NCBI GenBank assembly: GCA_027460535.1
Contig: JAPZAR010000009.1
Coordinates: 47,819 to 79,818, forward strand
Direction: 5' to 3'
DNA length: 32,000 nt
Source: Candidatus Methanoperedens sp.
GTDB lineage: Archaea > Halobacteriota > Methanosarcinia > Methanosarcinales > Methanoperedenaceae
Shown: positions 5,531 through 29,715 of the stretch, one piece after another
Position numbering within the stretch: position 1 is the stretch's first letter
Layout: the number at the start of each line of letters is the position of its first letter
Position numbers and translations under genes: made by a program
Notes under the pieces: model-generated
What the model was told of the DNA's origin: nothing
Databases searched by the model: none
What the model saw: the letters and a program-made list of their open reading frames with translations, nothing else

Positions 5531-5557
5531 TTTTGAATCCTCTTTTATGGTACCAGA

Positions 5558-8109: not shown

Positions 8110-8111
8110 AT

Positions 8112-11223: not shown

Positions 11224-11889
11224 ATGCAACTTGAAATAACTCAATTGTTCTCGATAATAGGTGAAGCTGTCGTATATTTCGTAATTTTTCTGTTAGCGAT
11301 TGCAGTGCTGGGTTCGCTGCTTATTTTCTATTCCTTCAAGACAGAGAAGTTCATTTTCCCGGGTTTCATGCTTTTCTCTATCACCATACTTGAAACCCTT
11401 GTCAAAGCCCTGTTCCGCCTCGTAGGTGCGGATGATTCCATCGTGGATGATGTAGGCATCGCCCTCAAGAACAAGATATCCCTTAAGAAATTCAGGAATA
11501 CTCCGATCAACAGGAGGATGATATTCCTGCCCCAGTGCCTGAGAGCCATAGACTGCCCCTCAAAATTGAGCCCCGAAGGAATGAAATGCATTGACTGCGG
11601 GAACTGCGAGGTCGGGAAAGCAAAGAAATGCGCCGAGGACCTGGGTTACAGGGTGTTCATCGTTCCGGGTTCAAGCTTCATAAAAAGGCTTGTGCGGAAA
11701 CACAAACCATTCGCAGTACTTGGCGTGGGATGCATGACCGAAGTCAAAGCCGGGATTGAGATGTGCGAAAAAATGAAACTCTTTGGGGTAGGTCTCGTTC
11801 TTGATAAAGCCGGGTGCGTTTCCACAGTGCTTGACTGGGATAGATTCTATGAGTTCATAGAATTTGATGACACGGCAATTTCTTCCTAA
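11224..11889 (+). CDS. DUF116-like Cys-rich membrane-associated protein
   Basis: Two N-terminal TM helices are followed by conserved Cys patterns (LPQCLR, CIDCGNCEVGK, LGVGCMTEV, KAGCVST) and IVPGSSFIKRL. These resemble DUF116 (PF01976) as I recall it. Confidence 0.5.
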   Translation: MQLEITQLFSIIGEAVVYFVIFLLAIAVLGSLLIFYSFKTEKFIFPGFMLFSITILETLVKALFRLVGADDSIVDDVGIALKNKISLKKFRNTPINRRMIFLPQCLRAIDCPSKLSPEGMKCIDCGNCEVGKAKKCAEDLGYRVFIVPGSSFIKRLVRKHKPFAVLGVGCMTEVKAGIEMCEKMKLFGVGLVLDKAGCVSTVLDWDRFYEFIEFDDTAISS

Positions 11890-12089: not shown

Positions 12090-13223
12090 ATGGACCAAAA
12101 AGGGCTCCCGCAGAAAGAAGTGCTTTCCTTCCTGGATTCGGCAAGGCAAAAGGACACTTCATATGACAGGGTTCTGAGCTCTATGTGCACACGACCTCAT
12201 CAAATAGCTGTAGAAGCCCATATGCGATTCATAGAATCAAATCTTGGCGACTTTGGCTTATTCCCAGGAACAAAAGAGCTTGAAGAAAAAGTGATCAGCA
12301 TCATGGGAAGCCTGCTTGGCGATCCTAATGCTTGCGGTTATATAACAACAGGCGGTACCGAATCCAACATTCAGGCGCTAAGAGCGATCAGGAACCTCGC
12401 GAAAAAAAGCCATCCGAATGTGGTTATTCCTTCTTCAGCCCATTTCTCATTCGACAAAATAGCTGACCTTCTTGGTATTGAGTTAAGAAAAGCCGGATTG
12501 GATGGGGAATTCAAGGTCGATGTCAATCGTGCGGAGAGCCTCATCGATGAGAAAACAATAGCGCTCGTTGGTATTGCAGGTTCGACCGAGTTCGGGCAAA
12601 TCGACCCGGTTGATGAACTTTCAGACCTCGCTTTATCTCATGATATTTTCCTTCATGTGGATGCCGCATTCGGTGGATTTGTAATACCTTTTCTTGATAA
12701 AAAATACGATTTCGATTTTTCAGTGGGGGGTGTGACCTCGATGACCGCCGACCCACACAAGATGGGTATGTCAACAATACCAGCAGGAGGCCTTCTCTTC
12801 AAAGAAGATGCGTGCCTTCTGCCTCTTGAAATAGATACACCTTACCTCACCATAAGGGCGCAACACTCACTCACTGGAACGAGAAGCGGTGCAGCAGTGG
12901 CGGCAGCTTATGCTGTGATGACGTACCTTGGCAGGGAGGGTTATAGCAAGATCGTGGGGAGATGCATGAAAATGACCCGGAGGCTCGTCGAAGGAGTTGA
13001 AGAATTTGGGATCAAGCCTCTCATCGATCCTGTAATGAATATAGTAGCTCTGGATGTGCCTAATCTGGAAGAGGTCAGAAAAGATATGAGGGCAAAAGGC
13101 TGGTATACTTCGATAACAAGATCTCCGAAAGCAATGAGGTTGATAATGATGCCCCACCTGCGCGAAGACACCCTTGAAATGTTCATTACAGATCTTGGGG
13201 CATGTGTTAATAAGGTCACATAG
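12090..13223 (+). CDS. mfnA: L-tyrosine/L-aspartate decarboxylase (PLP-dependent, methanofuran/CoA biosynthesis)
   Basis: 377 aa. Motifs SSMCTRPH, TGGTESN and HVDAAFGGF are present, together with the PLP-lysine motif DPHKMG. Length and N-terminus match archaeal MfnA. Confidence 0.88.
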   Translation: MDQKGLPQKEVLSFLDSARQKDTSYDRVLSSMCTRPHQIAVEAHMRFIESNLGDFGLFPGTKELEEKVISIMGSLLGDPNACGYITTGGTESNIQALRAIRNLAKKSHPNVVIPSSAHFSFDKIADLLGIELRKAGLDGEFKVDVNRAESLIDEKTIALVGIAGSTEFGQIDPVDELSDLALSHDIFLHVDAAFGGFVIPFLDKKYDFDFSVGGVTSMTADPHKMGMSTIPAGGLLFKEDACLLPLEIDTPYLTIRAQHSLTGTRSGAAVAAAYAVMTYLGREGYSKIVGRCMKMTRRLVEGVEEFGIKPLIDPVMNIVALDVPNLEEVRKDMRAKGWYTSITRSPKAMRLIMMPHLREDTLEMFITDLGACVNKVT

Positions 13224-14044: not shown

Positions 14045-16786
14045 TCATTCTTTTTCTCCTTTTTCATACCCCGAGCCCCGATGGATTATCTCTCTGGCTT
14101 TATCATAAGACTTTCTTGCTTCCTCGTATTCCCCTAATTTATAAAGATCAAAACCTTTGTTATACCAGGCACTGGCATATTCAGGAGTTATCTCTATAGC
14201 TCTATCATAAGCCTTCATTGCCTCTTCGTATTTCCCACTGCTTTGAAGGGATTGGCCTTTGTTATACCAATCATCGGCAGATTCAGGAGTTATCTCTATA
14301 GTTTTTTCATAAACCTTTATCGCCTTTTTGTATTTCCTACTACCATGAAGGGCAAGAACGATGACTATCAAGGCAATTAGAATATATCCCCATGGAGGGA
14401 ATTTTGATCCAATTGTGTTTTTAGGAATTGGTACAGTGATTCTCTCTGCAGATCTAATCTGTATTTGAAGTTCCTGACTTTTCGTGCTGATCTTTCTACC
14501 TTGGGTGTCGAATTCATAGTAATCAGCAGTCGCAGATGGGAGTTTGAAGGGCAGTGTTGAACCTATTTTAACAGCATAGTTTAAACTCACTTTCTCGTTT
14601 GCCTCCAAAGGTCTTTCAAGAGTTGTATTCCCGCTGACCAGGGTCACATTATCTGGCAGCAGGTCATTGATAATCACTTTTGTGGGTGTACTTCCAGTGT
14701 TTTCAGCGATTACTGTTACGATCACAGTATCTCCGGGCCTGACAACAGAAACATCTGTCTGCTTCGTCAGTACAACCTTTGGCCCAAGCACCACAATCTT
14801 TGGCTGGTTTGATCCTATGTTGTATGATCTATTGTTTATATTGAACTCGGCAGTTGCCACCGGGAATACGATGCCCACGTTGTTTGGCTCCAGAGGTCTG
14901 ACATCATAGTGGTATTTCCATTCCCCATTGGCAGGAATATCAACCACCCAGTGCAGCGATTGGTTGCCGAGGAGCTTAAAACCGTCCGGGAGAGAATCCG
15001 TAATACTCACATTTTTAAGATCGTACGTTCCATTGTTTTTTACTGATAATGAAATGCTGGTATAATCCTTCAAATACATCGTGTCAACCGTACTCTTCCT
15101 TATGGAGAGCCCCTCTTGAGGCTCACCAAAGAGTATTGAGTTCAAAAAAATATACGCTTTGCCAAGCATTTCATATAATGTGTTAAGAGGTTCATAGATT
15201 AGCGGTGTTATAGCAGGCACAGGTGTCGCTACTGTGATTTGAGGAGTCGGTGCCGTGGGAATTATCATTACAGTAGCTGCAGGTATTGTGATTTGTGGAG
15301 TAGGTATAGGAGTTTTCTTTGCGGATTTAAGCTGTATTTCAACTTCCTGACTGCTCGTGCTTATCTTTCTACCTATGGATCCGAGTTCATAGTATTCAGC
15401 ATTTGCAGCAGGAAGGGTGATGCTCTCTTTGGAATCGATTCTAAGGATGTAGCTGAAACTAATATTCATTGTTGCTTCCAGAAATCCCCCACTCGATGTG
15501 CTGCCTCTGACCAGGGTCACATCATCTGGCAACGTGTCCATGATATTCAACCTTGTAGGAGTACTTCCTGTATTTTCTGCAACCACAGTTACAGTCACAG
15601 CATCGCCAGGGTTGAACTCTGAAACATCCGCATGCTTCGTGAGGATAATCTTTGGTCCGTATACAACAATCATCGGCTGGTTTGATCGCACGCTATAAAA
15701 TTCATTATTTACTACGAACTCAGCGGTGGCTGCGGGAAAGATGATACCCTCCTTGTTCGACTCAAGAGGTCTTACCAGATAGTGGTAGTCCCATTCCCCA
15801 TTGACAGGAATATCAACAACCCAGTGCAGCGATTGGTTGCCGAGGAGTTTAAAACCGTTTGGAAGAGAATCTGTTATATTTACATTTCTAGCATCGAGCC
15901 TTCCATTGTTTTTTACAGATAATGAAACGATGTTGTAGTCCTTTAAATACATCTTATTAACCGTGGTTTTGCTTACGGAGAGCATAACAGGAACCTCGGC
16001 TGCCATTGAAATGCTCTTTATGGACGTTGCCGTATATGGAATATTCATAACATCGTATCCGCTGACGTTTGCTGATATGCTGTGCATTTCCAGTTCTGGG
16101 AGAATGGGTGATGCAAATGTAATGGTCTCGGTGGCGGATTCCCCTATTTTAATTCTATCATAGTGATATTTTAGATTTCCCCTGTTTATTGGAAGTTCTG
16201 TGTCAATGACCATATCAACATTAACCGCATCAGCCGAGCCTGTATTTTCTAAGTTTACAGTTGCAACAATGTTTGTGGTGTATGAGGATACGTATTTATC
16301 TTTGTCCGTCTGTATCGATACCGCAAGGCTTGGAATACCTCTTGGATCCAATTCAATTACCGCCCACGGAGCATAACTTTCAAAAATCCACTCTTGTGCA
16401 TTTTGAGCAGGGAGTCCGGTTGCTGTAACTCTCAAATTACCATCAGGAACGATATACGATTCCGTCAATCGGAGGGCAGCAGTGCCTATGTAACTGCCAT
16501 TTTTTGAAATATCCAGCTCCACGAAGGGTTCAACATGTTCTTCAGGCCCTGGTCTGTATTTTGCCGATTCCACAGGTGCCGGAAATCCTATCACTTTTAC
16601 TGAATACCCATTATATGTGAGCATTTCGCCACGAATGAGCTTGTTTGACACACCCCCTGTCCACTGCAGTTGTGAACTATCAGATGTTTGGGCAAAGCCG
16701 AACCCTGAGAAAATCAAGGCTATTATGATACCACAAATCAAGCCTTTTTTCCTCTTGTCGAGAGTGGATATATTTTTAAATAACAT
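14045..16786 (-). CDS. Surface protein with DUF11/CARDB-type repeat domains, a C-terminal TM helix and a cytoplasmic TPR tail
   Basis: The ORF track start at 16813 is a GTG. ATG 16786 gives a signal peptide (MLFKNISTLDKRKKGLICGIIIALIFSGFGFAQT). The DUF11-like signature recurs (VKNNGRLDARNVNITDSLPNGF; PGDAVTVTVVAENTGSTPTRLNIMDTLPDDV). A ~219-aa two-domain module is duplicated. The C-terminus has a Pro/Thr linker, a TM helix (WGYILIALIVIVLALHG), RKYKK and near-consensus TPRs. Confidence 0.8.
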   Translation of the reverse strand: MLFKNISTLDKRKKGLICGIIIALIFSGFGFAQTSDSSQLQWTGGVSNKLIRGEMLTYNGYSVKVIGFPAPVESAKYRPGPEEHVEPFVELDISKNGSYIGTAALRLTESYIVPDGNLRVTATGLPAQNAQEWIFESYAPWAVIELDPRGIPSLAVSIQTDKDKYVSSYTTNIVATVNLENTGSADAVNVDMVIDTELPINRGNLKYHYDRIKIGESATETITFASPILPELEMHSISANVSGYDVMNIPYTATSIKSISMAAEVPVMLSVSKTTVNKMYLKDYNIVSLSVKNNGRLDARNVNITDSLPNGFKLLGNQSLHWVVDIPVNGEWDYHYLVRPLESNKEGIIFPAATAEFVVNNEFYSVRSNQPMIVVYGPKIILTKHADVSEFNPGDAVTVTVVAENTGSTPTRLNIMDTLPDDVTLVRGSTSSGGFLEATMNISFSYILRIDSKESITLPAANAEYYELGSIGRKISTSSQEVEIQLKSAKKTPIPTPQITIPAATVMIIPTAPTPQITVATPVPAITPLIYEPLNTLYEMLGKAYIFLNSILFGEPQEGLSIRKSTVDTMYLKDYTSISLSVKNNGTYDLKNVSITDSLPDGFKLLGNQSLHWVVDIPANGEWKYHYDVRPLEPNNVGIVFPVATAEFNINNRSYNIGSNQPKIVVLGPKVVLTKQTDVSVVRPGDTVIVTVIAENTGSTPTKVIINDLLPDNVTLVSGNTTLERPLEANEKVSLNYAVKIGSTLPFKLPSATADYYEFDTQGRKISTKSQELQIQIRSAERITVPIPKNTIGSKFPPWGYILIALIVIVLALHGSRKYKKAIKVYEKTIEITPESADDWYNKGQSLQSSGKYEEAMKAYDRAIEITPEYASAWYNKGFDLYKLGEYEEARKSYDKAREIIHRGSGYEKGEKE
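14078..14395 (-). other. TM helix plus ~95-aa TPR tail module
   Basis: WGYILIALIVIVLALHG-SRKYKK-AIKVYEKTIEITPESADDWYNKGQSLQSSGKYEEAMKAYDRAIEITPEYASAWYNKGFDLYKLGEYEEARKSYDKAREIIHR. The basic residues right after the TM helix imply a cytoplasmic tail. Confidence 0.8.
14453..15985 (-). repeat. Internal duplication: two ~219-aa modules offset by 873 bp
   Basis: aa 277-497 (15323..15985) and aa 569-787 (14453..15109) of the track protein align colinearly. Examples: MYLKDYNIVSLSVKNNG... vs MYLKDYTSISLSVKNNG...; LHWVVDIPVNGEW vs LHWVVDIPANGEW; GRKISTSSQEVEIQLKSA vs GRKISTKSQELQIQIRSA. Confidence 0.85.
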
Positions 16787-16869
16787 CTTTGGATAACTTA
16801 ATAATTCTAACACTCATGCTTTTGCACGTAGTTCCCAATTTCCTTGACTTTGGTGCAAACAATACTGCT

Positions 16870-18052: not shown

Positions 18053-19648
18053 ATGAAAGGAAATTATAAAATTGGAATTGCAGTTTTACTGTTGGTTACG
18101 ATAACAGCAGCGTCGGCAGCTACACAGATCGGAGACAATATAACTGTTGCGAATAACGTCACAGCACAGAACTTTATAGGTAATTTAAATTGGGCATATT
18201 TATTAGGAATTCCTACAGATTTTCCGAACTCGACAGCGGTAACAGCAAACAATACAGCGAATGGTGCTGTTCAAACTTCGCTTTATAATGGCGACTTCCC
18301 GAATACCTCTTTGCCGAATTATCTTTTGATTTCAACATACGGTACCGACTTCCCGAACTTGACAGCAGTAACAGCAAACAATACAGCGAATGGTGCTGTT
18401 CAGACTTCGCTTTATAATGGCGACTTCCCGAATACCTCTTTGCCGAATTATCTTTTGATTTCAACATACGGTACCGACTTCCCGAACTCGACAGCAGTAA
18501 CAGCAAACAACACAGCGAATGGTGCTGTTCAGACTTCGCTTTATAATGGCGACTTCCCGAATACTTCCTTGCCGAATTATCTTTTGATTTCAACATACGG
18601 TACCGACTTCCCGAACTCGACAGCAGTAACAGCAAACAACACAGCGAATGGTGCTGTTCAAACTTCGCTTTATAATGGCAACTTCCCGAATACCTCTTTG
18701 CCTAATTATCTTTTGATTTCAACATACGGTACCGACTTCCCGAACTCGACAGCAGTAACAGCAAACAACACAGCGAATGGTGCTGTTCAAACTTCACTTT
18801 ATAATGGCAACTTCCCGAACAGTTCTGTCCTGACAAAAGAACCGGCAATCACAGGCTCAACCTCAAATACTTTTTGGAATGGATTAAAACAATTTGTTAC
18901 TCTATCAAGCGGATTGATTACTGATTTTTCAGCAGCGGTAAGAACAAATATATCAGCAACAGGTAATGCTACTTACAACTCAGCCACCGGAGTGATTGAT
19001 GCTCTTACCAATATAACAGCAGTAAGGACTTCAATATCAGCAACAGGCAATGCTACTTATAATTCATCGACTGGTGTAATTGACGCATTAACTAACATCA
19101 CTGCAGTAAGGAATTCAATATCATCAAGCAGCGGGCTTGTATCTTATAATTCTTCGACAGGAGTAGTATCGGATAGCATCAATTCATCTGCAAATCTGTA
19201 TAATATAAATGGCAGTAATGTAACAAGTGGCAAAGTAAATAGTCAATTCCTTAATATAACCAATATTACGTCGTATTTATCTAGTAATAAAGTTACACCA
19301 AACAACAACGTATACGTTGTCGGGCCTACCATAAATCTTCAAGCCGGCACATGGTTTCTTAATGGAGGAGTTACAGTATCCGAAGTCGGAGGTGCTGGTT
19401 CACTAAAAGTAGTAACGTGTAATATGTCACAAGGTGGCACAAATGTAATATCTTCAGGTGAAGCTGCTAGCAATGCCGTACCAGCGGTAATCCAATTGTC
19501 CGGGCTTATATCCCTTAGTTCACCAGCTACCGCACAGATTGCTTGTGCCGGTGGTGCTCAAAATGCAACTATCTATGCGGCTGTACCTGATAATGCTGGA
19601 GGAGCAGGAAATACTGCAAGCTATATTACAGCGCTAAGGATCGGATAA
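18053..19648 (+). CDS. Secreted repeat protein, tail-fibre/adhesin-like
   Basis: cGGAGGA Shine-Dalgarno 7 nt upstream. Signal peptide MKGNYKIGIAVLLLVTITAASAATQ. The protein has 4.7 x 43-aa repeats and 3 x 28-aa repeats (AVRTxISATGNATYNSxTGVIDALTNIT). The C-terminal ~130 aa is Gly/Ala/Ser-rich, probably a beta domain, and ends ASYITALRIG. Confidence 0.75.
   Translation: MKGNYKIGIAVLLLVTITAASAATQIGDNITVANNVTAQNFIGNLNWAYLLGIPTDFPNSTAVTANNTANGAVQTSLYNGDFPNTSLPNYLLISTYGTDFPNLTAVTANNTANGAVQTSLYNGDFPNTSLPNYLLISTYGTDFPNSTAVTANNTANGAVQTSLYNGDFPNTSLPNYLLISTYGTDFPNSTAVTANNTANGAVQTSLYNGNFPNTSLPNYLLISTYGTDFPNSTAVTANNTANGAVQTSLYNGNFPNSSVLTKEPAITGSTSNTFWNGLKQFVTLSSGLITDFSAAVRTNISATGNATYNSATGVIDALTNITAVRTSISATGNATYNSSTGVIDALTNITAVRNSISSSSGLVSYNSSTGVVSDSINSSANLYNINGSNVTSGKVNSQFLNITNITSYLSSNKVTPNNNVYVVGPTINLQAGTWFLNGGVTVSEVGGAGSLKVVTCNMSQGGTNVISSGEAASNAVPAVIQLSGLISLSSPATAQIACAGGAQNATIYAAVPDNAGGAGNTASYITALRIG
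18221..18825 (+). repeat. In-frame tandem repeat, 129-bp unit x ~4.7
   Basis: Unit starts (ttcccgaact) fall at 18221, 18350, 18479, 18608 and 18737, an exact 129-bp spacing. Only a few substitutions separate the units. The encoded unit is FPNSTAVTANNTANGAVQTSLYNG(D/N)FPNTSLPNYLLISTYGTD. Confidence 0.9.
18935..19186 (+). repeat. In-frame tandem repeat, 84-bp unit x 3
   Basis: Units begin at 18935, 19019 and 19103 (gc[g/a]gtaag[a/g]...). The third copy is more divergent. Confidence 0.85.
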
Positions 19649-19689
19649 GGTTTGGTCTTTGATGGATAAACTTGTCATATAAAAATAAT

Positions 19690-22600
19690 ATGAGACTGTT
19701 TATTTATTTGATAGGCATTGCATTGATAATCGGAGTAGCTTCGGCTGACGTCAGCATTGTAGACGACACTCTTTTCAACCTCGGCAATGGTGCCTTCATT
19801 AAAGTCCTTGCAGTCCAGAACTCGACAAACATCACCGTATACAGTTCAACAAATTCACCGGCATCCACGCTCCAGTTTTACATCAACGGCACAGCGATAA
19901 GATTCACCGCAAACACCAATAAAACGCTCTCAAATATTTCTTATGATAATGCGACCGATGTCGTAACATACACCGGGAATGGCACTGATGGCTATCTCAA
20001 TGTATCGACGCGAATGCAAGTATCATCGGTAAATTATGGATTGAAGGTTGACGGAGTTGTTGACCAAAGGCAACAATCCAATGCTACCGGGTGGGTGACA
20101 TTCAATTACACAGGATGGAGCCCGAATCTGCATGTCTTTGAAATATCGAATCGAACATATATTCCTCCAGCACCCACGAACCTGATCAATGTCAGCGATA
20201 ACTTTTATGTGAACCACAGCTGGCAGGCAGGATCAGGAAACATAACGGATTCGTACAATGTAAGCGTCAATGGTACCTGGCATAATGGTGCAAACAGTAC
20301 CTATTACAATAATTCAGGTTTAGCTCCACACGGCTGGAGCAACATCTCGGTATATTCATACAACAGTTCAGGTACAGGCACGATGAACACCACGGCTGTA
20401 TCCCAGAACACCCGGGTCCCGGATAATCCAGTAACGATAACTAATATTTCAGATTCATATAATCTCAATGACAGTGAGACTCTTTACATAGCTGCGAATT
20501 GCACTGACATAGACGGCGACACATGCATTTTTAATAGGAATTTCACTCAAGGGACATTCGATTCATCTACGGGAATACTCAACTGGCAGGCAGGATACGG
20601 AAATTATAGCTGGCAGATTAACGTCACTGATGGGTTTGGTTCAGTTTCCAGGAAGAATTTCACAGTTGCGGTAAACGACATCCACCCCCCATCGCAGGTA
20701 ACTAATTTTCATAACTCTACCATCCCAACTGCGGATTCAGTCAATGTTGCATGGAACGCAAGCAATGACGGTGCAAACGGCTCTGGGATTAAGGAATACA
20801 GAATTGAGCGAACCAATGAATCGTTCAATTACATGACCATTGATAGGCCCATAATAAATGCAACTGGAATAGCATCGGGGTACGAGAACGATTCTTACTG
20901 GTATACTTTCAAGACCAATGAACCGGTTAACTGTCAGGGATGCCACGTCAATGGAAGGACGAGAATAGGCAATTTCTGGACCAAATACAATACAACGTAC
21001 CTCTACGTGATGGTGCATGCACCGGATAACGACACAAATATAAGCGATGATAACATAAGTCTTGCATTCGACGTGAACAGGGATAGTGGCACAGCTCCGC
21101 AGCCGGATGACCAGATGTATGAAATTACTGAGCAGAACAACCTTCTCCGCTATACAGGCAACGGCACAGATTGGGTCGCAAACAGTACCAGTGCTGTAAG
21201 TGCCGTAGCGGGTGCAGGTTCAAAAGCGCCAGTATATGAGATAAGAATTCCACTATCTGAAATAGGCAGCCCTTCTAATAACACGCCTATAAATTTCTTA
21301 TTTGAGAACGTATGTACCGGCAGCGGTGATTTTATAGAGAGGCACACATATTTCCCGAAAAACCCAAACGCCAGCGAAAAGGATCCAAGTTCGTGGGGAT
21401 TGATAACATTCAGGAGCCTCACGGATTATGTTCAGATAGCCAATCCATCAGGAACTTCTTATATGATTGCGGATCTAAAGGATGGTTTCAGGTATGACTT
21501 CACAGCTAAGGCCGTGGATAATGTCGGCAATACAGGTCAGCGTTCAGACCCATTGATTATTCAGACTGCGGGAGATCTCGGTTACAATATCTCAGGGTAC
21601 GTTTTTAATTACCTTGGAAATCCAATACCAAATGTTCGTGTCCAGACGCCCAAAGACTATATCGTAAGTTCGCATTCAAATGGCGATTATTTCTTAGAAG
21701 AGCTGATTAATTTTACTTATGATGTTACTGCAAGCAGCGGAGTTTACAGCAGCGATATCACACAAGTTACAGTAAATGGCGCTGATGTTCATAATGTCAA
21801 TATCACAATTCCGCATATTACAGTAAACGCCACAGACTTGGTCACTGCATGCGGGAATTTCTATTGCAACTCAACATGGACTGCTGGAGGTAACACTACA
21901 TCGTTTAATATAAGCCAAAATGAAACCTGGTATAATGGCACTACCAATAATTATTTTAACGTCTCGATCAGCCCGCATGAATACAGCAATATCACAGTGT
22001 CTGGTTACAATGACTATACGACAGCTCTTAGTATTGGAAGTGTAACGCAGAACACTTCAATCCAGAACAATCCTGTTACAATAGGCAACATATCAGATAA
22101 CTATTCATTGATCGAAGGGCAAACCCTCATCATATATCCAAATTCAACCGATGCGGACAGTGACACTCCGACGTTTGCCAGGAATTTCACGAACGGTACG
22201 TTCTACACGAATAACGGCACAATGCTCTGGACGACTACGGGCAGCGATATAGGCATTCATTCCTGGCAGATAAACGTGACTGATGGGTATGGTTCGGTTT
22301 CCTCTGCAAATTTCACGGTAACCGTGAATTCATTCGAAGTGAGCCTGACAAATATATCTGCTTTAACAAATACTACTTTTGCAGGAACAAATGCGATCTA
22401 TATTCTCAATCTGACCAATAACGGTACAGCAGGAGCGGATACGTATAATCTCACGATCGATAATACAAACGGAGCATCCGCTTCCTTGAACGTCTCCCCG
22501 GATTTTGTGTATGTGCCTCAAGCCGGAAGCGTAATATTCGCACTCAATGTAACCAATGCATCGTCAGGAATATTCCGTGTCAATGTCACAGCAACCTCGG

Positions 22601-25600
22601 TGAATAACTCAAATAAGATTGCATACATCAATACCACAACGACTGTGAATGCTGTCAGGGCAGTCAGCCTGAGTGTGGATCCTACTGCAAGGACCACATC
22701 AGCTGGAACCAATGCAACCTACGTACTCAACATCACCAACAACGGCAGCGACCCGGATACCTATACTCTCCTTGTAACCAATGCCAGCAGTGCCTCCGTA
22801 GCATTGCTGAACATCTCCTCCCCAACATCCACGCTCGGTTCAGGTCAGAGCCTGATCCTCGCCCTTAACGTCACCAATACCTCTTCAGGCACATTCCTTG
22901 TGAATGTAACCGCAACCTCAAGCAGCGATGCCACGAAATTCGCCTATGTCAATACCACAACGACTGTGAATGCGGTCAGGGCAGTTAACCTGACCGTAAA
23001 TCCAAGCGAACAGGCAACATCCACAGGCACCAATGCCACCTATCTCCTCAACCTCACCAATAACGGTACTGATGCAGATACCTATACTCTCGTCGTTACT
23101 AACGCAAACAATGCATCAACCGCTTTGTTGAATACCTCATTGAGCCAGAGCCTGAATGCAGGGCAGAGCCTGATATTGGCTCTTAACGTGACCAATTCAT
23201 CAGCAGGTTCAGGTACTTTCAATGTAAATGTAAGTGCCACCTCAAGCGATCCTACTAAGTTCGCGTTCGTCAATACCACAACGACTGTGAATGCGGTCAG
23301 GGCAGCCAACCTGACCGTAAATCCAGGCGAACAGGCAACATCCACAGGCACCAATGCCACCTATATCCTCAACCTCACCAATAACGGTACTGATGCAGAT
23401 ACCTATACTCTCCTTGTAACCAATTCCAGCAGTGCCTCCGTAGCATTGCTGAACATCTCCTCCCCAACATCAACGCTCAGTCCGGGTCAGAGCCTGATCT
23501 TCGCCCTTAACGTCACCAATGCCTCTTTGGGCACATTCCTTGTGAATGTAACCGCAACGTCAAGCAACGATGCCACGAAATTCGGCTATGTCAATACCAC
23601 CACGACTGTGAATGCGGTCAGGGCAGTCAGCCTTACAGTAAATACAGCCGCCCAGACAACATCTGCCGGAACCAATGCCACCTACGTACTCAACCTCACC
23701 AATAACGGTACTGATGCAGATACCTATACTCTCCTTGTAACCAATTCCAGCAGTGCCTCCGTAGCATTGCTGAACATCTCCTCCCCAACATCCATGCTCA
23801 GTCCGGGTCAGAGCCTGATCTTCGCCCTTAACGTGACCAATACCTCTTCGGGCACGTTCAAGGTGAATGTAACCGCAACCTCAAGCAGCGATGCCACGAA
23901 ATTCGCCTATGTCAATACCACAACGACTGTGAATGCTGTCAGGGCTGTTAGTTTAAGCATAGATGCTCCTTCAAAGGACACCGATGCCGGCGTGAATGCC
24001 ACCTACGTGCTCAATCTTACCAATAACGGCAGCGACCCGGATTCCTATGCCTTGCTGGTAACCAACGCGAGCAATGCCTCTGTAGCGGCTCTCAATATCT
24101 CCTCGCCCACTTCTACGCTCAGTCCGGGTCAGAGCCTGATCTTCGCCCTTAACGTGACCAATACCTCTTCGGGTACGTTCAAGGTGAATGTAACCGCAAT
24201 CTCGCAGGGCAACAATTCGAAGTTCGCCAGCGTGAATACCACAACTGTGATGGGTGCTATCCGGGGTGTCAGTTTAAGCATAGACGCTCCTTCAAAGAGC
24301 ACCGACGCCGGCGTGAATGCCACCTACGTGCTCAATCTTACCAATAACGGTACTGATGCGGATACCTATACTCTCCTTGTAACCAATTCCAGCAGTGCTT
24401 CCGTAGCATTGCTGAACATCTCCTCCCCAACATCCACGCTCGGTTCAGGTCAGAGCCTGATCTTCGCCCTTAACGTCACCAATACTTCTTCGGGTAACTT
24501 CAGCGTCAATGTAACCGCAACCTCAAGCATCAATGCCACAAAATTCGCCTATGTCAATACCACAACGGCTGTGAATGCGGTCAGGGCAGTCAGCCTGACC
24601 ATCAATACAACTGCCCAGACAACATCAGCCGGAACCAATGCCACCTATATCCTCAACCTCACCAATAACGGTACTGATGCAGATACCTATACTCTCATCG
24701 TTACTAACGCAAACAGTGCCTCAACCGCTCTTCTGAATACCTCATTGAGCCAGAGCCTGAATGCAGGACAGAGTGTTATATTCGCCCTTAACGTCACCAA
24801 TACCTCCTCAGGCACATTCCTCGTGAATGTAACCGCAACCTCAGGCAACGATGCCACAAAATTCGCCTATGTCAATACCACCACGATTGTGAATGCAGTC
24901 CCGACTTACATACCTCCGACCCCGACAGATTTATCGAGCACTCAGGGTAATTTCTGGATAAACTACACATGGAGTGCAGGGAGCGGGAGCGTAACGGATT
25001 CATACAATGTAAGCGTCAACGGCACATGGCATAACGGAACAAACAGTACCTATTACAATAATTCAGGTTTAGCTCCACATGGCTGGAGCAACATCTCGGT
25101 CTATTCCTTCAACAATTCAGGCACGGGCACGCTGAACAGCACTGCCGTATCCCAGAACACCCGGGTGCCGAACAACGTACCTGTCCAGGCATCGATCGGC
25201 AACAAGAACGTGTACGAGAACGAGACATTGAGCTTCACGGTCTCTGCAACAGACGCAGACGGCGATACCATGACCTTCGGCACCAATGCATCAAAAGGCA
25301 GCCTCAATACAACAACAGGCTTATTCACCTGGACGCCCACGTTCGGGGACTCAGGGATTTACGTCTGGTACTTCAATTCAAGCGACGGGTACGAAGGTAT
25401 AGCGACTGAAACCATAACAGTGACCGTGAACAATATCCCATTAACAATCACCTCGCGTTCACCCGGCACCGACCCGACCACAATCGTAGATACAGGTCAG
25501 ACCTTCACTGTAAACCTGAACAGGAGTGCAAACGTCACCTGGTACATCAACGGCATATCTGTCCAGGGAAACACCAGCATAACCTCGGCAAGCTATACCA

Positions 25601-28600
25601 ACCTAACTTCCGGTGTGGGTGTGCATAACCTAACAGCAATGGTATCCGATGCTTTCGATACCACTCCAACCATGTGGAACTGGACTGTAACTGCATTCCC
25701 GACCCACATGCCCCCGACCCCTTCCAATCTTACCAGCAGCACAGGATATTACTTCGTGAACCACAGCTGGCAGGCAGGAGACGGGAACGTAACGGACAGC
25801 TATAACGTCAGCGTAAACGGCACATGGCAAAACGACACGACCGGTACCTATTACAACAATTCAGGGTTGTCTGCACACGGTTGGAGCAACATCTCGGTCT
25901 ATTCCTTCAACACTTCAGGCACAGGAGCCCTTAACGAAACCCCGGTAACCGCAAATACCCAGGTTCCCAACAACGTTCCTGTCCTCACACCAATCGTAGA
26001 TAAAGTCGTGACTGCAGGCATCTGGCTGAATTTCACAGTCGTTGCGACGGATGCAGACGGCGATCCTTTAACCTACGGCACCAATGCCACCAGGGGAGCA
26101 CTCGATCCTGCATCAGGTAACTTTAACTGGTCAACCACAGGCAGCGATGTGGGAACCTATGTGTGGTACTTCAGCTCAAGTGATACCTACGGCGGTGTTG
26201 CATCAGGAACAATAACAGTGACCGTGACTGCTGCTCCCACGTATCTCCCGCCAAGCCCGGTGAACCTTGCCAGCACCACAGGGAATTTCTATGTCAACCA
26301 TACCTGGAATGCAGGCTCAGGAAACGTAACCCACAGCTATAAAGTGAGTGTGAATGGTACATTTCAAAATATTGGGTTGAACTGGAGTGCTGGTATCCCA
26401 GTGGGAGTTGGTATTCTTGCATTGACTTATGCTGGAAACGGAACTGTTATCGCTGGTGATTACTCTAATGGTAATATTTATCGTTCAACAGACTATGGTC
26501 AAACCTGGGGTGCTGGTATTTCAGTTGGAAGTAGTATTGGTGGACTAACCTATACTGGCAACGGGGTTATTATCGCTGCTGATAGCAATAACGGTAATAT
26601 TTATCGTTCGACAGACTATGGTCAAACCTGGAGTGCTGGTATTCCAGTCGGGAGTGCTATTTTTGAATTGACGTATGCTGAAAACGGAACAGTTATCGCT
26701 GCTGATAGCAATAACGGTAATATTTATCGTTCAACCGACTATGGTCAAACCTGGAGTGCTGGTATTCCAGTTGGGAGTGTTTATTATGCATCGACTTATG
26801 CCGGAAACGGAACTGTTATCGCTGGTGATTATGCCAATGGTAATATTTATCGTTCCACAGACTATGGTCAAACCTGGAGTGCTGGTATTCCAGTCGGGAG
26901 TAGTATTGGTGTAATAACCTACGCTGGAAACGGAATTGTATTCGCTGCTGATAGCAATAACGGTAATATCTATCGTTCAACCGATTATGGTCAAACCTGG
27001 AGTGCTGGTATTCCAGTCGGGAGTGTTATTTTTGCATTGACTTATGCAGGCAACGGAATTGTTATCGCTGGTGAGGACAGTGACGGTGATATTTATCGTT
27101 CAACCGACTATGGTCAAACCTGGAGTGCTGATATTCTAGTCGGGAGTGGTATTGATGGGATAATCTATATTGGAAATGGAATTGTTATCGCTGGTGATTA
27201 CAAAAACGGTAATATTTATCGTTCGGATCCTACCTATACTACGCATACCTATTACAACAATTCAGGGTTGTCTGCACACGGATGGAGCAACATCTCGGTC
27301 TATTCCTTCAACAATTCAGGCACAGGAACCCTTAACGAAACCCCGGTAACCGCAAACACCCAGGTTCCCAACAATCCGGTCTCGATAGGGAATGTATCGA
27401 GCAGCTACACATTAACCGCGGGTGACATGTTATCGATATATCCGACTTCGAGCGATCTGGACGGCGACACTCCCACGTTTGCCAGTAATTTCACCAACGG
27501 TACGTTCTACGCGAATAACGGCACACTGTTCTGGACGACAACGGGCAGCGATGAAGGCATCCATTCCTGGCAGATAAACGTGACAGACGGGTACGGGTCG
27601 GTCTCCTTTGCAAATTTCACGGTAACCGTGACCGCAGTACTTGCACCCAACATCACTTCCTGGGGCAATAACAAGACCAACAATGAGAGCTTGACTTTAA
27701 CCCTGAACAATAGCGAAGGCATAAGGTTCAATGCCACTGCAAACCAGAGTATAACCACATGGACATGGTTCCAGGACGACGTTAACCAGAACAATAACTA
27801 TGACAATTTCTCAACCAGCCTCACTGGCGGAAATCATACCATTAAAGTCAATGCAACCAATGGTAACGGGGTAAGCAATACTATTACCTGGATTGTTACG
27901 ATAACTCCAACGCCAACCATCTCACCGGTAATCACAGGCTTTGCTCCTTCTTCGCCCGTAATTGATATCGTGGGTGCAACTAGAACCTTCAACATCACCG
28001 TTAACCAGACCGTGAACGTAACCTGGTATGTCAACGGAACGCAGGCTCAGACAAATACGAGTGTGACTAATGCAGGTTATACCAACGCCAGTGCAGGACT
28101 TGGCGTATGGAACGTAACAGCCACTGCAGCCAATTCCAATGGTGTCGTATCACAGGTATGGATATGGAATGTGACAGCAGCACCGAGTGGAGCACCTAAC
28201 ATAACCAGTTTTGCTCCTTCTTCGCCCGTAAATGATATCGTGGGTGTAACTAGAATATTCAACATCACCGTTAACCAGACCGTGAACGTAACCTGGTACA
28301 TCAACGGAACGCAGGCTCAGACCAATATCAGTGTGACCGATGCCAGTTATACCAACACCAGTGCAGTCCTTGGAGTATGGAACATATCAGCAAATGCAGC
28401 CAATTCCAATGGCGTTGTTTCACAGGCGTGGATCTGGAACGTGACAGCAGCCCCGACAGGAACACCTAATATAACCAGTTTTGCCCCGGCTTCGCCTGTA
28501 AACGATATCGTGGGTGCAACTAGAACATTCAACATCATCGTTAACCAGATCGTGAATATAACATGGTACATCAACGGAACTCAGGTTCAGACAAGTATGA

Positions 28601-29715
28601 GTGTGACCGGTGCCAGTTATACTAACACCAGTGCAGTCCTTGGAGTATGGAACATAACAGCCACTGCAACCAATTCCAATGGTGTTGTATCACAGGTATG
28701 GATGTGGAACGTGGCAGCAGCACCAACCCCGGCACCCACTCGGAAATCTGTTACCGGCGGCGGTGGGGGTGGCGGAGGTGGAGAAGGCGCAAAATCCTCG
28801 GAACCGCCCATAAACATTGAGTCGTTTGAGCTTGCGGAACAATACTTAGGAGCAAATACTCCTGCCTCTTATATATTCACTACACCAAACCTTGTAATTT
28901 CTGAAGTGTTAATAACTCCTGCAAGGAACTTTGGAACTACAAGCATAAGAATAGAAACGCTCAAAAATTTATCAAACAGAGAAGGGATGACACCACCCCC
29001 AGGAATTGTTTATAAATATGTTAATATCTGGGTCGGTGCAGGGGATATCGATAGTCCAGACAGCATCATAGACGCATTCATAGGGTTTGAAGTCGATCGC
29101 GGCTGGCTTGCGCAGAATAACCTTGAGGAGAATAATATAAGACTTCTTAGATGGGACGGAAGCAAGTGGAACTCGCTGGATACTCAGCCAACGAGCAGTG
29201 ATGAAACATTCGCATATTATTATTCAAGAACCAACGCATTCTCGCCTTTTGCAATAGTTGCCCTTCCCCTTTATCCATCTGCCACAGCTCAGGCAGGCGA
29301 AACTCCAATAACAGAGGCTCCAATGCAAGAGCTAATAAAACAGTTGGCGGTAGAACGGGTATCCTGGCTGTGGATGTATGCATTAATTGCTTTGATACTT
29401 ATCAGCCTTGCCCTTTATAAATTAAGTAAATACCAAAAAAAGGCAATTAAAGTTTATGAAGCTGTGGCGATAAAGCCAGAGAATGCCGATGCATGGTATG
29501 GTAAAGGCGCCGAGCTTCAGGAGATAGGGAAATACGAAGAGGCAATAAAATCTTATGATAAGGCTATAGAGATAAATCCAGAATATTCCAATGCTTGGAA
29601 TAACAAAGGTTTTGCCCTCTATGAATTAGGGAAATACGAAGAGGCAGCAAAGGCATATGATAAAGCAAGAGAGATAATCCATCGAAGCAGGCAATCGGAT
29701 GAGGACTCTTTATGA
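19690..29715 (+). CDS. Giant (3341-aa) modular surface glycoprotein with a PGF-pre-PGF domain, TM helix and cytoplasmic TPR tail
   Basis: The ORF track start at 19672 is a TTG. ATG 19690 gives the signal peptide MRLFIYLIGIALIIGVASA/DV. Modules, read by eye, in order: five FN3-like plus cadherin-like/He_PIG pairs (acidic DxDxDGD motifs); an FN3 with a CBM9-like insert; a CarboxypepD_reg-like domain; eight 107-aa CARDB/NEW3-like repeats; a seven-unit Asp-box propeller; five NVTWYING-type Ig-like modules; a G9 linker; a PGF-pre-PGF domain; TM; TPRs. Confidence 0.9.
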   Translation: MRLFIYLIGIALIIGVASADVSIVDDTLFNLGNGAFIKVLAVQNSTNITVYSSTNSPASTLQFYINGTAIRFTANTNKTLSNISYDNATDVVTYTGNGTDGYLNVSTRMQVSSVNYGLKVDGVVDQRQQSNATGWVTFNYTGWSPNLHVFEISNRTYIPPAPTNLINVSDNFYVNHSWQAGSGNITDSYNVSVNGTWHNGANSTYYNNSGLAPHGWSNISVYSYNSSGTGTMNTTAVSQNTRVPDNPVTITNISDSYNLNDSETLYIAANCTDIDGDTCIFNRNFTQGTFDSSTGILNWQAGYGNYSWQINVTDGFGSVSRKNFTVAVNDIHPPSQVTNFHNSTIPTADSVNVAWNASNDGANGSGIKEYRIERTNESFNYMTIDRPIINATGIASGYENDSYWYTFKTNEPVNCQGCHVNGRTRIGNFWTKYNTTYLYVMVHAPDNDTNISDDNISLAFDVNRDSGTAPQPDDQMYEITEQNNLLRYTGNGTDWVANSTSAVSAVAGAGSKAPVYEIRIPLSEIGSPSNNTPINFLFENVCTGSGDFIERHTYFPKNPNASEKDPSSWGLITFRSLTDYVQIANPSGTSYMIADLKDGFRYDFTAKAVDNVGNTGQRSDPLIIQTAGDLGYNISGYVFNYLGNPIPNVRVQTPKDYIVSSHSNGDYFLEELINFTYDVTASSGVYSSDITQVTVNGADVHNVNITIPHITVNATDLVTACGNFYCNSTWTAGGNTTSFNISQNETWYNGTTNNYFNVSISPHEYSNITVSGYNDYTTALSIGSVTQNTSIQNNPVTIGNISDNYSLIEGQTLIIYPNSTDADSDTPTFARNFTNGTFYTNNGTMLWTTTGSDIGIHSWQINVTDGYGSVSSANFTVTVNSFEVSLTNISALTNTTFAGTNAIYILNLTNNGTAGADTYNLTIDNTNGASASLNVSPDFVYVPQAGSVIFALNVTNASSGIFRVNVTATSVNNSNKIAYINTTTTVNAVRAVSLSVDPTARTTSAGTNATYVLNITNNGSDPDTYTLLVTNASSASVALLNISSPTSTLGSGQSLILALNVTNTSSGTFLVNVTATSSSDATKFAYVNTTTTVNAVRAVNLTVNPSEQATSTGTNATYLLNLTNNGTDADTYTLVVTNANNASTALLNTSLSQSLNAGQSLILALNVTNSSAGSGTFNVNVSATSSDPTKFAFVNTTTTVNAVRAANLTVNPGEQATSTGTNATYILNLTNNGTDADTYTLLVTNSSSASVALLNISSPTSTLSPGQSLIFALNVTNASLGTFLVNVTATSSNDATKFGYVNTTTTVNAVRAVSLTVNTAAQTTSAGTNATYVLNLTNNGTDADTYTLLVTNSSSASVALLNISSPTSMLSPGQSLIFALNVTNTSSGTFKVNVTATSSSDATKFAYVNTTTTVNAVRAVSLSIDAPSKDTDAGVNATYVLNLTNNGSDPDSYALLVTNASNASVAALNISSPTSTLSPGQSLIFALNVTNTSSGTFKVNVTAISQGNNSKFASVNTTTVMGAIRGVSLSIDAPSKSTDAGVNATYVLNLTNNGTDADTYTLLVTNSSSASVALLNISSPTSTLGSGQSLIFALNVTNTSSGNFSVNVTATSSINATKFAYVNTTTAVNAVRAVSLTINTTAQTTSAGTNATYILNLTNNGTDADTYTLIVTNANSASTALLNTSLSQSLNAGQSVIFALNVTNTSSGTFLVNVTATSGNDATKFAYVNTTTIVNAVPTYIPPTPTDLSSTQGNFWINYTWSAGSGSVTDSYNVSVNGTWHNGTNSTYYNNSGLAPHGWSNISVYSFNNSGTGTLNSTAVSQNTRVPNNVPVQASIGNKNVYENETLSFTVSATDADGDTMTFGTNASKGSLNTTTGLFTWTPTFGDSGIYVWYFNSSDGYEGIATETITVTVNNIPLTITSRSPGTDPTTIVDTGQTFTVNLNRSANVTWYINGISVQGNTSITSASYTNLTSGVGVHNLTAMVSDAFDTTPTMWNWTVTAFPTHMPPTPSNLTSSTGYYFVNHSWQAGDGNVTDSYNVSVNGTWQNDTTGTYYNNSGLSAHGWSNISVYSFNTSGTGALNETPVTANTQVPNNVPVLTPIVDKVVTAGIWLNFTVVATDADGDPLTYGTNATRGALDPASGNFNWSTTGSDVGTYVWYFSSSDTYGGVASGTITVTVTAAPTYLPPSPVNLASTTGNFYVNHTWNAGSGNVTHSYKVSVNGTFQNIGLNWSAGIPVGVGILALTYAGNGTVIAGDYSNGNIYRSTDYGQTWGAGISVGSSIGGLTYTGNGVIIAADSNNGNIYRSTDYGQTWSAGIPVGSAIFELTYAENGTVIAADSNNGNIYRSTDYGQTWSAGIPVGSVYYASTYAGNGTVIAGDYANGNIYRSTDYGQTWSAGIPVGSSIGVITYAGNGIVFAADSNNGNIYRSTDYGQTWSAGIPVGSVIFALTYAGNGIVIAGEDSDGDIYRSTDYGQTWSADILVGSGIDGIIYIGNGIVIAGDYKNGNIYRSDPTYTTHTYYNNSGLSAHGWSNISVYSFNNSGTGTLNETPVTANTQVPNNPVSIGNVSSSYTLTAGDMLSIYPTSSDLDGDTPTFASNFTNGTFYANNGTLFWTTTGSDEGIHSWQINVTDGYGSVSFANFTVTVTAVLAPNITSWGNNKTNNESLTLTLNNSEGIRFNATANQSITTWTWFQDDVNQNNNYDNFSTSLTGGNHTIKVNATNGNGVSNTITWIVTITPTPTISPVITGFAPSSPVIDIVGATRTFNITVNQTVNVTWYVNGTQAQTNTSVTNAGYTNASAGLGVWNVTATAANSNGVVSQVWIWNVTAAPSGAPNITSFAPSSPVNDIVGVTRIFNITVNQTVNVTWYINGTQAQTNISVTDASYTNTSAVLGVWNISANAANSNGVVSQAWIWNVTAAPTGTPNITSFAPASPVNDIVGATRTFNIIVNQIVNITWYINGTQVQTSMSVTGASYTNTSAVLGVWNITATATNSNGVVSQVWMWNVAAAPTPAPTRKSVTGGGGGGGGGEGAKSSEPPINIESFELAEQYLGANTPASYIFTTPNLVISEVLITPARNFGTTSIRIETLKNLSNREGMTPPPGIVYKYVNIWVGAGDIDSPDSIIDAFIGFEVDRGWLAQNNLEENNIRLLRWDGSKWNSLDTQPTSSDETFAYYYSRTNAFSPFAIVALPLYPSATAQAGETPITEAPMQELIKQLAVERVSWLWMYALIALILISLALYKLSKYQKKAIKVYEAVAIKPENADAWYGKGAELQEIGKYEEAIKSYDKAIEINPEYSNAWNNKGFALYELGKYEEAAKAYDKAREIIHRSRQSDEDSL
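20932..20946 (+). other. CXXCH motif (CQGCH), candidate covalent haem c site
   Basis: tgt cag gga tgc cac is in frame. It uses two of the seven Cys I counted by eye in the 3341-aa protein. It lies ~25 aa before the CBM9/DOMON-like core (TYLYVMVHAPDND). The motif is certain; the function is speculative. Confidence 0.35.
22342..24900 (+). repeat. In-frame tandem array, 8 x ~321 bp (107-108 aa CARDB/NEW3-like domain)
   Basis: Unit starts fall at 22342, 22666, 22987, 23308, 23629, 23950, 24271 and 24592. The conserved core is GTNATY(V/I/L)LNLTNNGTDADTYTL...ALNVTNTSSGTF.VNVTATS...KFAYVNTTTTVNAVRAV. Confidence 0.95.
26380..27230 (+). repeat. In-frame tandem array, 7 x 123 bp (41-aa Asp-box/BNR blades)
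   Basis: ggt(aat/gat)at(t/c)tatcgttc recurs at 26470, 26593, 26716, 26839, 26962, 27085 and 27208, an exact 123-bp period. The unit is SAGIPVGS.I..LTYAGNG.VIA.D..NGNIYRSTDYGQTW, and STDYGQTW fits S-x-D-x-G-x-T-W. Confidence 0.95.
27925..28734 (+). repeat. In-frame tandem array, 3 x 270 bp (90-aa Ig-like module)
   Basis: Units start at 27925, 28195 and 28465. The unit is P(N/V)IT.FAP.SPV.DIVGATRTFNITVNQTVNVTWYINGTQAQTN.SVT.A.YTNTSA.LGVWN.TA.A.NSNGVVSQVW.WNVTAAP. More divergent copies lie at ~25435 and ~27640. Confidence 0.9.
28798..29265 (+). other. PGF-pre-PGF domain (TIGR04213-like) of the giant protein
   Basis: SEPPINIESFE...VYKYVNIWVGAG...IGFEVDRGWLAQNNLEENNIRLLRWDGSKWNSLDT...AFSPFAIVA is colinear with 10501..10950 in the PGF-CTERM protein. 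Both domains are preceded by a poly-Gly linker. Confidence 0.75.
29365..29690 (+). other. TM helix plus TPR tail module
   Basis: WLWMYALIALILISLALY-KLSKYQKK-AIKVYEAVAIKPENADAWYGKGAELQEIGKYEEAIKSYDKAIEINPEYSNAWNNKGFALYELGKYEEAAKAYDKAREIIHR. By my hand alignment it is ~70% identical to the tail of the 14045..16786 protein. Confidence 0.8.

Follow-up and report, generated by a model that had tools for sequence, protein, structure and literature searches.

Paired FN3-like and PKD/cadherin-like modules in a giant surface-type protein of Candidatus Methanoperedens

What is a 3341-residue archaeal protein with five reiterated module pairs built for, and are the pairs copies of one ancestral unit? 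The question is raised by a 32,000-nucleotide stretch of Candidatus Methanoperedens sp. (GenBank assembly GCA_027460535.1, contig JAPZAR010000009.1, positions 47,819 to 79,818), here called the window, whose own numbering is used throughout. An open reading frame (ORF) on the + strand (19672..29715) encodes the 3341-amino-acid product from the ATG at 19690. The same length is called in public record GCA_027460495.1 (contig JAPZAT010000041.1), with the gene call starting at that ATG, and a near-identical protein, P0028, begins at the same methionine. An earlier note on this DNA had described five copies of an FN3-like module (A), each followed by a cadherin-like module (B), and had proposed that the pair acts as a duplicating cassette. 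We find both module types at all five positions. The A-B pair probably forms a Ca2+-stiffened stalk unit of a membrane-anchored surface protein, and the five pairs are mosaics rather than copies of one cassette.

To compare the protein with itself, chunks of 100 residues were searched by BLASTP against a masked copy. Module A1 matched A3 (79% identity, E 1e-51), A4 (66%, E 2e-43) and A2 (44%, E 2e-18), while B2 matched B5 (69%, E 2e-44) and B3 matched B4 (55%, E 3e-29). E-values spanned 1e-51 to 2e-18 for the A copies and 2e-44 to about 1e-10 for the B copies, and an alignment of all five pairs comprised 185 columns, 40 of them invariant. These E-values and invariant columns establish that A and B are each homologous at all five positions, as the earlier note had supposed. 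The starts that it gave for module A (20158, 21830, 24901, 25696 and 26233) were recovered within a few codons, each with a B module next, and the five acidic motifs that it quoted are all present in B. The (Y/H)(I/L/M)PPxP motif itself starts at nucleotides 20158, 24907, 25705 and 26242, with a degenerate copy at about 21811 (residue 714).

The pairs, like every other feature of the gene, lie on the + strand. A1 (20155..20424, residues 162-251) was recognised by self-BLASTP, alignment and a local hidden Markov model (HMM), and has a weak Pfam fn3 match. It is followed by B1 (20425..20691, residues 252-340), a Big_9/He_PIG-type PKD/cadherin-like module with the motif CTDIDGDTC, found by Pfam, alignment and local HMM. 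A2 (21811..22068, residues 714-799) is degenerate and lacks the PPxP start; it was placed by BLASTP to A1 and by alignment, and had no Pfam match. Its partner B2 (22069..22335, residues 800-888; STDADSDTP) matches Big_9 with E 6.4e-6 and is 74% identical to B5 in the pair alignment. A3 (24904..25173, residues 1745-1834) and A4 (25702..25971, residues 2011-2100) were each identified by the motif, self-BLASTP and alignment. B3 (25174..25437, residues 1835-1922; ATDADGDTM) matches Big_9 with E 1.4e-8 and He_PIG with E 2.9e-6; B4 (25972..26232, residues 2101-2187; ATDADGDPL) and B5 (27373..27642, residues 2568-2657; SSDLDGDTP) were placed by alignment and local HMM. A5 is split. Its N-terminal half, strands A to C' (26239..26370, residues 2190-2233), corresponds to local HMM positions 1-45, and its C-terminal half, strands E to G (27232..27372, residues 2521-2567), to positions 46-90, the latter half being 93% identical to the matching part of A4.

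Structural models of the pair were predicted with AlphaFold2 (AF2). When only the five window pairs were supplied as the alignment, module A was predicted with pLDDT <50, and 51 diverse A-B pairs were therefore used instead. The resulting model of A3 and B3 had a pLDDT of 96.6 and a pTM of 0.79, with seven strands in each domain, and the predicted strand order in A is A, B, C, C', E, F, G. Foldseek searches of the PDB with the two-domain model returned cadherin EC pairs, tandem FN3 domains and SraP cadherin-like modules (E about 1e-6). Module A is thus predicted to be a seven-strand FN3-like sandwich. Features in common with FN3 domains (PF00041) are the predicted seven strands, a PPxP start, a Trp in strand B and an L-x-P-x-x-Y/W...V-Y-A/S-x-N pattern (the register with human 10Fn3 being non-significant). 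It differs from them in matching neither fn3 models nor solved FN3 domains significantly, and in being marked by six to eight conserved N-X-S/T sequons.

Module B matched known families. Big_9 (PF17963, cut-off 23.6 bits) scored above its cut-off for B3 (35.9 bits) and B2 (27.4 bits) and just under it for B1 (22.5 bits); He_PIG (PF05345, cut-off 24 bits) scored 28.1 bits for B3. Across the 51 A-B pairs, the two models matched 33/51 and 24/51 respectively. The Pfam cadherin models stayed below their cut-offs for B (Cadherin_5, 17.5-20.3 bits vs 26.5; Cadherin_4, 15.4 vs 25.1). In a search of PDB sequences with a profile of the 51 pairs the B half alone matched, the best match being the Ca2+-bound PKD-like domain of collagenase ColG (4aqo, E 2e-6), with cadherins next. 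The Pfam matches and the profile search together agree with the earlier assignment of B as a cadherin-like/He_PIG module, and indicate a PKD/cadherin-like sandwich.

The Ca2+ ligands of ColG are N685, D713, D715 and D754 (PMC4356367). In the HMMER alignment to 4aqo these residues align with N93, D119, D121 and D163 of B. N93 is the second Asn in ...PNN, the A-B linker; D119 and D121 are the first and second Asp of a DxDxD motif, and D163 is the Asp of a ...SDGYG turn. The collagenase-type ligand set is therefore complete in B: besides the linker Asn it comprises two Asp of the B'-C loop and a further Asp that precedes strand G. Among 141 B modules gathered by an HMM trained on the copies in the window, N93 was conserved in 131/141 and D119, D121 and D163 in 140/141 each. 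From this pattern we infer that B binds one Ca2+ and uses the linker Asn to do so. In ColG and ColH, Ca2+ makes the domain more stable and brings its N-terminal linker into line with the domain axis (PMC4356367). A corresponding site in B would combine the linker Asn of ...NTQ(V/I)PNN with the DxDxD loop and, because the linker Asn is part of it, Ca2+ would stiffen the A-B joint.

The PKD-like domains of ColG and ColH (4aqo, 4jrw; PMC4356367) are the closest solved sequence relatives of B, with the four ligand side chains near-invariant. However, B has a third conserved Asp (DxDxD), is archaeal, carries sequons and sits after an FN3-like domain instead of after a peptidase or another PKD domain. 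In the Foldseek searches, cadherin EC repeats and the SraP CDHL domain (4m03) ranked highest, both for B and for the two-domain model, and they likewise have acidic motifs near the domain junction. In cadherins, though, EC repeats lie on both sides of the junction and three Ca2+ ions bridge it, whereas the upstream partner of B is FN3-like and its ligand set is of the single-Ca2+ PKD type.

To determine how widely the pair occurs, a profile of four A copies was searched against 1.84 billion representative proteins. At E <= 1e-3 it found 556 protein clusters (counted as representatives), of which 443 also passed E <= 1e-10; single proteins contained as many as 11 A modules. In a one-genome-per-species set, contigs with A belonged to Methanoperedens, to other anaerobic methanotrophic archaea of the ANME-2 group (Methanogaster, HR1) and to other Methanosarcinales metagenome-assembled genomes (MAGs), plus two contigs binned as bacterial. 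Local HMMs for A and B were then run on 173 retrieved proteins and the window protein. The next module after A was B in 193 cases, another A in 67 and something else in 121, and B was preceded by A in 202/236 cases. Near-perfect (AB)n arrays are present, as are A-only arrays (P0027, P0033 and P0041). Judged by these module orders, A-B is a preferred, lineage-typical didomain. No account of it was found in the open-access literature on ANME and Methanoperedens surface proteins.

The two bacterial-labelled contigs encode clear A-B-A and A-B-A-B proteins, at 8945-11626 of L008 (a 153-kb Pedobacter sp. MAG contig) and at 9890-11281 of L014 (a 72-kb WOR-3 MAG contig). The 20-kb stretches around them have GC contents of 0.38 and 0.33 respectively, with nearly all genes on one strand. 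Their A-B proteins could reflect mis-binning, a Methanoperedens-associated extrachromosomal element or real transfer.

The window protein as a whole has the plan of an anchored surface protein: a signal-peptide-like N-terminus, an ectodomain of about 3200 residues, a PGF-pre-PGF domain, one hydrophobic helix and a TPR tail. The start codon and the signal-peptide-like hydrophobic segment (MRLFIYLIGIALIIGVASA) occupy 19690..19746, as judged by a hydrophobicity scan and the public gene call. The PGF-pre-PGF domain (28804..29262, residues 3045-3197) matches NCBIfam TIGR04213 with E 7.3e-38 and 129.9 bits, above the cut-off of 28. A single transmembrane helix is predicted at 29356..29427 (residues about 3229-3252; Kyte-Doolittle window maximum 2.27), and it is followed by a predicted cytoplasmic tail and the stop codon (29428..29715), where a TPR domain of about 95 residues gives a TPR_1 match of E 4e-18. 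The protein has a strong compositional bias (T 13.7%, N 11.7%, S 10.9%). There are 223 N-X-S/T sequons against about 93 expected from composition, 2.4 times the expectation, all in the ectodomain and 0 in the tail. In the 141 modules, A carries a mean of 7.9 sequons per 88 residues or so, and B a mean of 4.1. Six A alignment columns have a sequon in 77-92% of the modules (NxT in strand B, NVS, NGT, NNS, NIS and NxS), and the most conserved A residues are mostly sequons.

On this evidence we favour, with reasonable though not high confidence, a type-I membrane-anchored, heavily N-glycosylated surface protein of Candidatus Methanoperedens (ANME-2d), adhesin-like or matrix-like, in which A-B is a Ca2+-stiffened stalk unit. 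Because its most conserved residues are mostly sequons, A is probably a glycan-carrying spacer, and it would bear many N-glycans. Heavy N-glycosylation would also fit the genes for glycosyltransferases and NDP-sugar metabolism in the same island. Strings of A-B joints would make a rigid, protease-resistant stalk that spaces binding modules from the membrane. The likely binding modules presented in this way are a CBM9-like domain, a BNR propeller and Ig-like arrays. The role may be in contact between cells, or of cells with matrix or mineral, and the TPR tail may couple the protein to something cytoplasmic.

The structural and evolutionary parts of this account, which cover the anatomy of the protein, the homology of its modules, the size of the family, the mosaicism of the pairs and the conservation of sequon and Ca2+-ligand residues, are much firmer than the functional parts. 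Several points weigh against it. Glycosylation, Ca2+ binding, surface exposure, rigidity and an adhesive role are all things that we infer. The A-B joint is not obligatory, since B follows A in about half of cases. The apparent residue conservation in the 141 modules is inflated, because the HMM that collected them came from the window's own copies. The N-, S- and T-rich composition lifts the sequon background, though the observed count still exceeds the expectation as given above. The FN3-like label for A, which the earlier note had used, is supported by the predicted seven-strand sandwich but not by the sequence. The best copy, A1, reached 16.9 bits (E 0.0074) against the Pfam fn3 (PF00041) gathering cut-off of 25 bits, fn3 matched only 2/51 family members at E <= 0.01, and the A consensus had zero matches in Pfam. 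An hhalign comparison of A with human 10Fn3 was in register but not significant (E 0.11), and an A-only profile found nothing significant among PDB sequences, the best match being T4 Hoc (E 0.27). Since no fn3 sequence match was significant, the FN3 label is a structural prediction and not demonstrated family membership. There is no curated model for A in Pfam or NCBIfam.

The protein might instead be a subunit of a lattice-forming surface layer (S-layer) or sheath, with the A-B units as bricks of the wall. The strong PGF-pre-PGF domain, which is typical of Methanosarcinales surface proteins, would suit such a subunit, as would the extreme sequon density and the presence of two more surface-type proteins and a glycosylation cluster in the same island. 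Nevertheless, no S-layer duplication-domain model in Pfam or NCBIfam matched the protein, and its C-terminus is a transmembrane helix with a TPR tail, not a PGF-CTERM sorting signal. The architecture is also highly variable, P0028 differing by the length of one array unit, and such variability would be more typical of adhesin-like proteins. We regard an S-layer subunit as unlikely. With the PGF-pre-PGF proteins of Methanosarcinales (TIGR04213) the window protein shares the strong model match, and the gene for another such protein lies 9 kb upstream. The window protein departs from them in that the domain is followed by a separate helix and TPR tail; it does not terminate, as archaeosortase (PGF-CTERM) substrates do, in a PGF motif, a transmembrane helix and a short basic tail.

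The giant Ca2+-rigidified adhesins of bacteria, such as SiiE with its BIg domains (2yn3), offer a close parallel to an anchored, adhesin-like stalk: they too are long strings of Ig-like domains with acidic Ca2+ sites at the junctions and occasional ligand-binding modules. SiiE was among the Foldseek matches, at rank 34. The bacterial proteins rely on type I secretion and outer-membrane retention, in contrast to the Sec-type signal, PGF-pre-PGF domain, single transmembrane helix and TPR tail of the window protein, which also alternates two domain types.

Much of the ectodomain lies outside the five pairs. Between B1 and A2 there is a canonical fn3 domain with a nested CBM9_1-like domain (20704..21561, residues about 345-630). 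CBM9_1 matches residues about 407-579 with E 2.3e-7, after which the C-terminal half of the fn3 domain (profile positions 42-82) resumes with E 2.5e-5; the insert sits after strand C. A CarboxypepD_reg-like domain follows (21589..21810, residues about 640-713; PF13620, E 9.6e-8). Both are as the earlier note had named them. Its CARDB array proved to be half right. Eight Ig-like units of 107 residues do lie between B2 and A3 (22339..24900, residues about 890-1743), as seen in the unit identities and by Tandem Repeats Finder (TRF; 321-nt period, 7.1 copies, 77% matches), but CARDB (PF07705) gave zero matches for one unit, the whole array or the whole protein. The best matches of the array were DUF2808 (E 6e-12, 46.2 bits), an OCRL-like ASH domain and DUF11 (E 0.09). 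The NCBIfam choice-of-anchor T model gave E 1e-15 and 57.5 bits, below its cut-off of 70. An Ig-like module between B3 and A4 (25447..25701, residues 1926-2010) had no significant Pfam match and is 39-47% identical (E 1e-17 to 1e-24) to three C-terminal repeats of 90 residues. These repeats, together with one divergent module, follow B5 (27643..28761, residues 2658-3030; TRF 270-nt period, 2.9 copies, 87% matches) and have marginal Pfam matches only.

Composition changes along the gene. In the region 22000-26000, which holds the eight-unit array and the next modules, GC content rises to 0.48-0.51 and GC skew falls to about -0.2, compared with a GC content of about 0.42 and a skew of about zero outside it. 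Codon bias for Thr, Ala and Asn within the repeats probably explains the difference.

A BNR/Asp-box propeller of seven 41-residue blades occupies 26371..27231 (BNR_6, E 1.7e-18; Sortilin-Vps10, E 3.8e-13). The scores were 65.1 bits with BNR_6 and 55.6 bits with BNR, over six stretches, and the Asp-box motif (SxDxGxTW) occurs as YRSTDYGQTW six times before a degenerate seventh blade. The earlier note had listed the propeller among the cargo between pairs. The propeller is real, but A5 is interrupted after strand C' by 288 residues comprising the seven blades, and resumes at ...TYYNNSGL. With the two halves of A5 on either side, the propeller is an insertion in the C'-E loop of this module, not cargo between pairs. 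The blades are 68-83% identical to each other (TRF 123-nt period, 6.9 copies, 80% matches), which suggests amplification in place, and P0028 carries the same insert. Five further A modules are split, in P0034 (residues 473-803), P0047 (626-961 and 1049-1399), P0119 (23-358) and P0164 (20-351). Here the inserts lie in the B-C loop and comprise 238-269 residues with five or six near-identical WYLISG...GFNWTGSxWQxDS repeats, apparently a propeller-like repeat family. The BC and C'E loops are the binding loops in engineered FN3 scaffolds such as monobodies, and the nested inserts of the A family sit in the same two loops. New domains have probably arisen inside FN3 loops.

With a CBM9-like domain and a propeller present, the protein might be read as a scaffold that binds or processes carbohydrate, these two domains being functional on exopolysaccharide and the A-B units inert linkers. 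The CBM9_1, BNR_6 and Sortilin-Vps10 matches given above favour this. On the other hand, no catalytic domain was detected by Pfam or NCBIfam in the 3341 residues, and near-identical blades of 41 residues would fit a Vps10/Ycf48-type binding propeller better than a sialidase. We consider such a scaffold improbable as a separate explanation; it overlaps the adhesin-like or matrix-like stalk rather than opposing it.

The second part of the question is whether A and B duplicated together. The phylogeny of the five pairs, which the earlier note had suggested as the test of duplication, gave incongruent histories: from identities within the window protein, the A tree is ((1,3),(4,5)),2 and the B tree is ((2,5),1),(3,4). 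When the pairs were compared in a sliding window of 20 columns, identity changed abruptly at the A|B linker, falling from 80-100% to 26-35% for A1 and A3 and from 90-95% to 21-37% for A4 and A5, and rising from about 45% to 80-95% for pair 2 against pair 5. For the window's A modules, the closest relatives are further A modules of this protein, whereas for its B modules they are found in other proteins. The conflicting trees, the breakpoints at the linker and the differing nearest relatives together mark the five pairs as mosaics instead of copies of a single cassette.

The same was seen across the family. Only 23/141 units had the same unit as best partner for both A and B. In 53 unit pairs the A modules are at least 70% identical and the B modules <50%, and in 26 the situation is reversed. 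These discordant pairs and the A-only arrays stand against a self-duplicating cassette, in which all five pairs would descend from one ancestral pair and the cargo would have been captured between copies. A cassette does find some support. A and B identities are correlated weakly but significantly (Mantel r = 0.18, p = 0.001), A precedes B in most cases as counted above, and 50 unit pairs have both modules at least 70% identical. Tandem amplification of whole pairs is also real in some relatives: in P0029, four units recur about every 181 residues, their A and B modules both being 88-97% identical, and P0026 has units at 424, 607, 785 and 965, the A and B modules of the two proteins being 76-97% identical. 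The proposal of a duplicating cassette therefore applies to such relatives but not to the window protein, for which we think it rather improbable.

One conceivable source of the incongruence, recent gene conversion of A, was rejected. Codon identity among identical residues was just modestly raised for A1-A3, A4-A5 and B2-B5 (0.63-0.70, compared with 0.33-0.59 for other pairs), and the highest nucleotide identity between copies, 81%, indicates that nothing recent has occurred. These two values suggest that the exchange is old, and at that age gene conversion is indistinguishable from module replacement. In the history that we favour, A and B would be separate, exchangeable modules that are preferentially joined, and the pair would have been amplified as a cassette in some relatives. 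Recombination at the conserved ...NTQ(V/I)PNN linker would have produced the mosaics seen in the five window pairs. That the repeats are a by-product of the N-, S- and T-rich, low-complexity composition, and not homologous domains, can be dismissed despite the bias, in view of pairwise E-values down to 1e-51 over full modules, the 40 invariant columns, the confident two-domain AF2 model and hundreds of homologues in other genomes.

P0028 shows how the architecture varies over a short distance. Over the first 1630 residues or so (the sole BLAST high-scoring segment pair) it shares 94.5% identity with the window protein, and its C-terminal 120 residues are identical. At 3234 residues against 3341 it is exactly 107 residues, or one array unit, shorter, which suggests seven units rather than eight. 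Either the copy number varies between the two genes or the 321-nt repeat was collapsed during assembly.

Giant surface proteins in which Ig-like repeats meet at Ca2+ sites are a familiar kind. What is new here is the A family, which is confined to the lineage, has no model and shows a characteristic set of sequons; also new are its preferred pairing with a PKD-type Ca2+-site domain and the propellers nested in loops. As a tentative extension, which we rate as possible but well short of probable, A would be a new domain family restricted to ANME-2 and Methanoperedens, selected on its six to eight sequons as a glycan-display FN3. Its BC and C'E loops would be the host sites in which whole propellers repeatedly arose by in-place amplification of one blade, and with its Ca2+-site partner B it would be the main matrix block of methane-oxidising aggregates. 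Methanoperedens and other ANME-2 archaea live in aggregates and touch minerals or partner cells, and their surface proteins are almost unannotated. A didomain found in >500 protein clusters provides a handle for annotating these giant proteins, for targeted glycoproteomics and for a curated A model. The A-B unit is a common building block in the lineage, which makes the find real but fairly ordinary. Nested propellers and mosaicism at the linker neatly illustrate the evolution of giant surface proteins, and current understanding is not overturned.

The surrounding island encodes other surface-type proteins. A 635-residue protein (9232-11139, + strand), whose gene lies 9 kb upstream of the large one, has no Pfam match and matches PGF-pre-PGF TIGR04213 with E 7.5e-34; it is the third surface-type protein in the island. 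A 922-residue protein (14045-16813, - strand) contains DUF11 repeats (E 1e-26) and has a transmembrane helix and TPR tail at its C-terminus. Its tail is 69% identical over 106 residues to that of the 3341-residue protein, while the ectodomains are otherwise unrelated. The helix/TPR anchor common to these two proteins suggests a common intracellular partner. A 531-residue ORF (18053-19648, + strand; 488 residues in the public record) had no match in Pfam or NCBIfam. It lies 24-42 nt upstream of the large gene on the same strand, with which it is possibly co-transcribed.

A run of glycan-related genes (341-9050, - strand) encodes two B12-binding radical-SAM proteins, a nucleoside diphosphate (NDP)-sugar 4,6-dehydratase/epimerase, and GT4 and GT2 glycosyltransferases, which include weak, sub-cut-off matches of AglJ-like and polyprenyl-phosphate sugar synthase-like type. 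Its GC content, 0.34-0.38, is below that of the rest of the window. Similar genes were seen near A-B genes elsewhere. On L014, GT4 and B12-radical-SAM genes flank the A-B gene, and on the contig of P0019 a B12-radical-SAM gene lies just downstream of a fragmented A-B gene. Between the surface-protein genes of the window lie those for a DUF116 protein (11224-11889, + strand) and a pyridoxal-dependent decarboxylase (12090-13223, + strand), the latter possibly a methanofuran-pathway enzyme of the MfnA type. Both genes are consistent with a chromosomal background of methanogen or ANME type.

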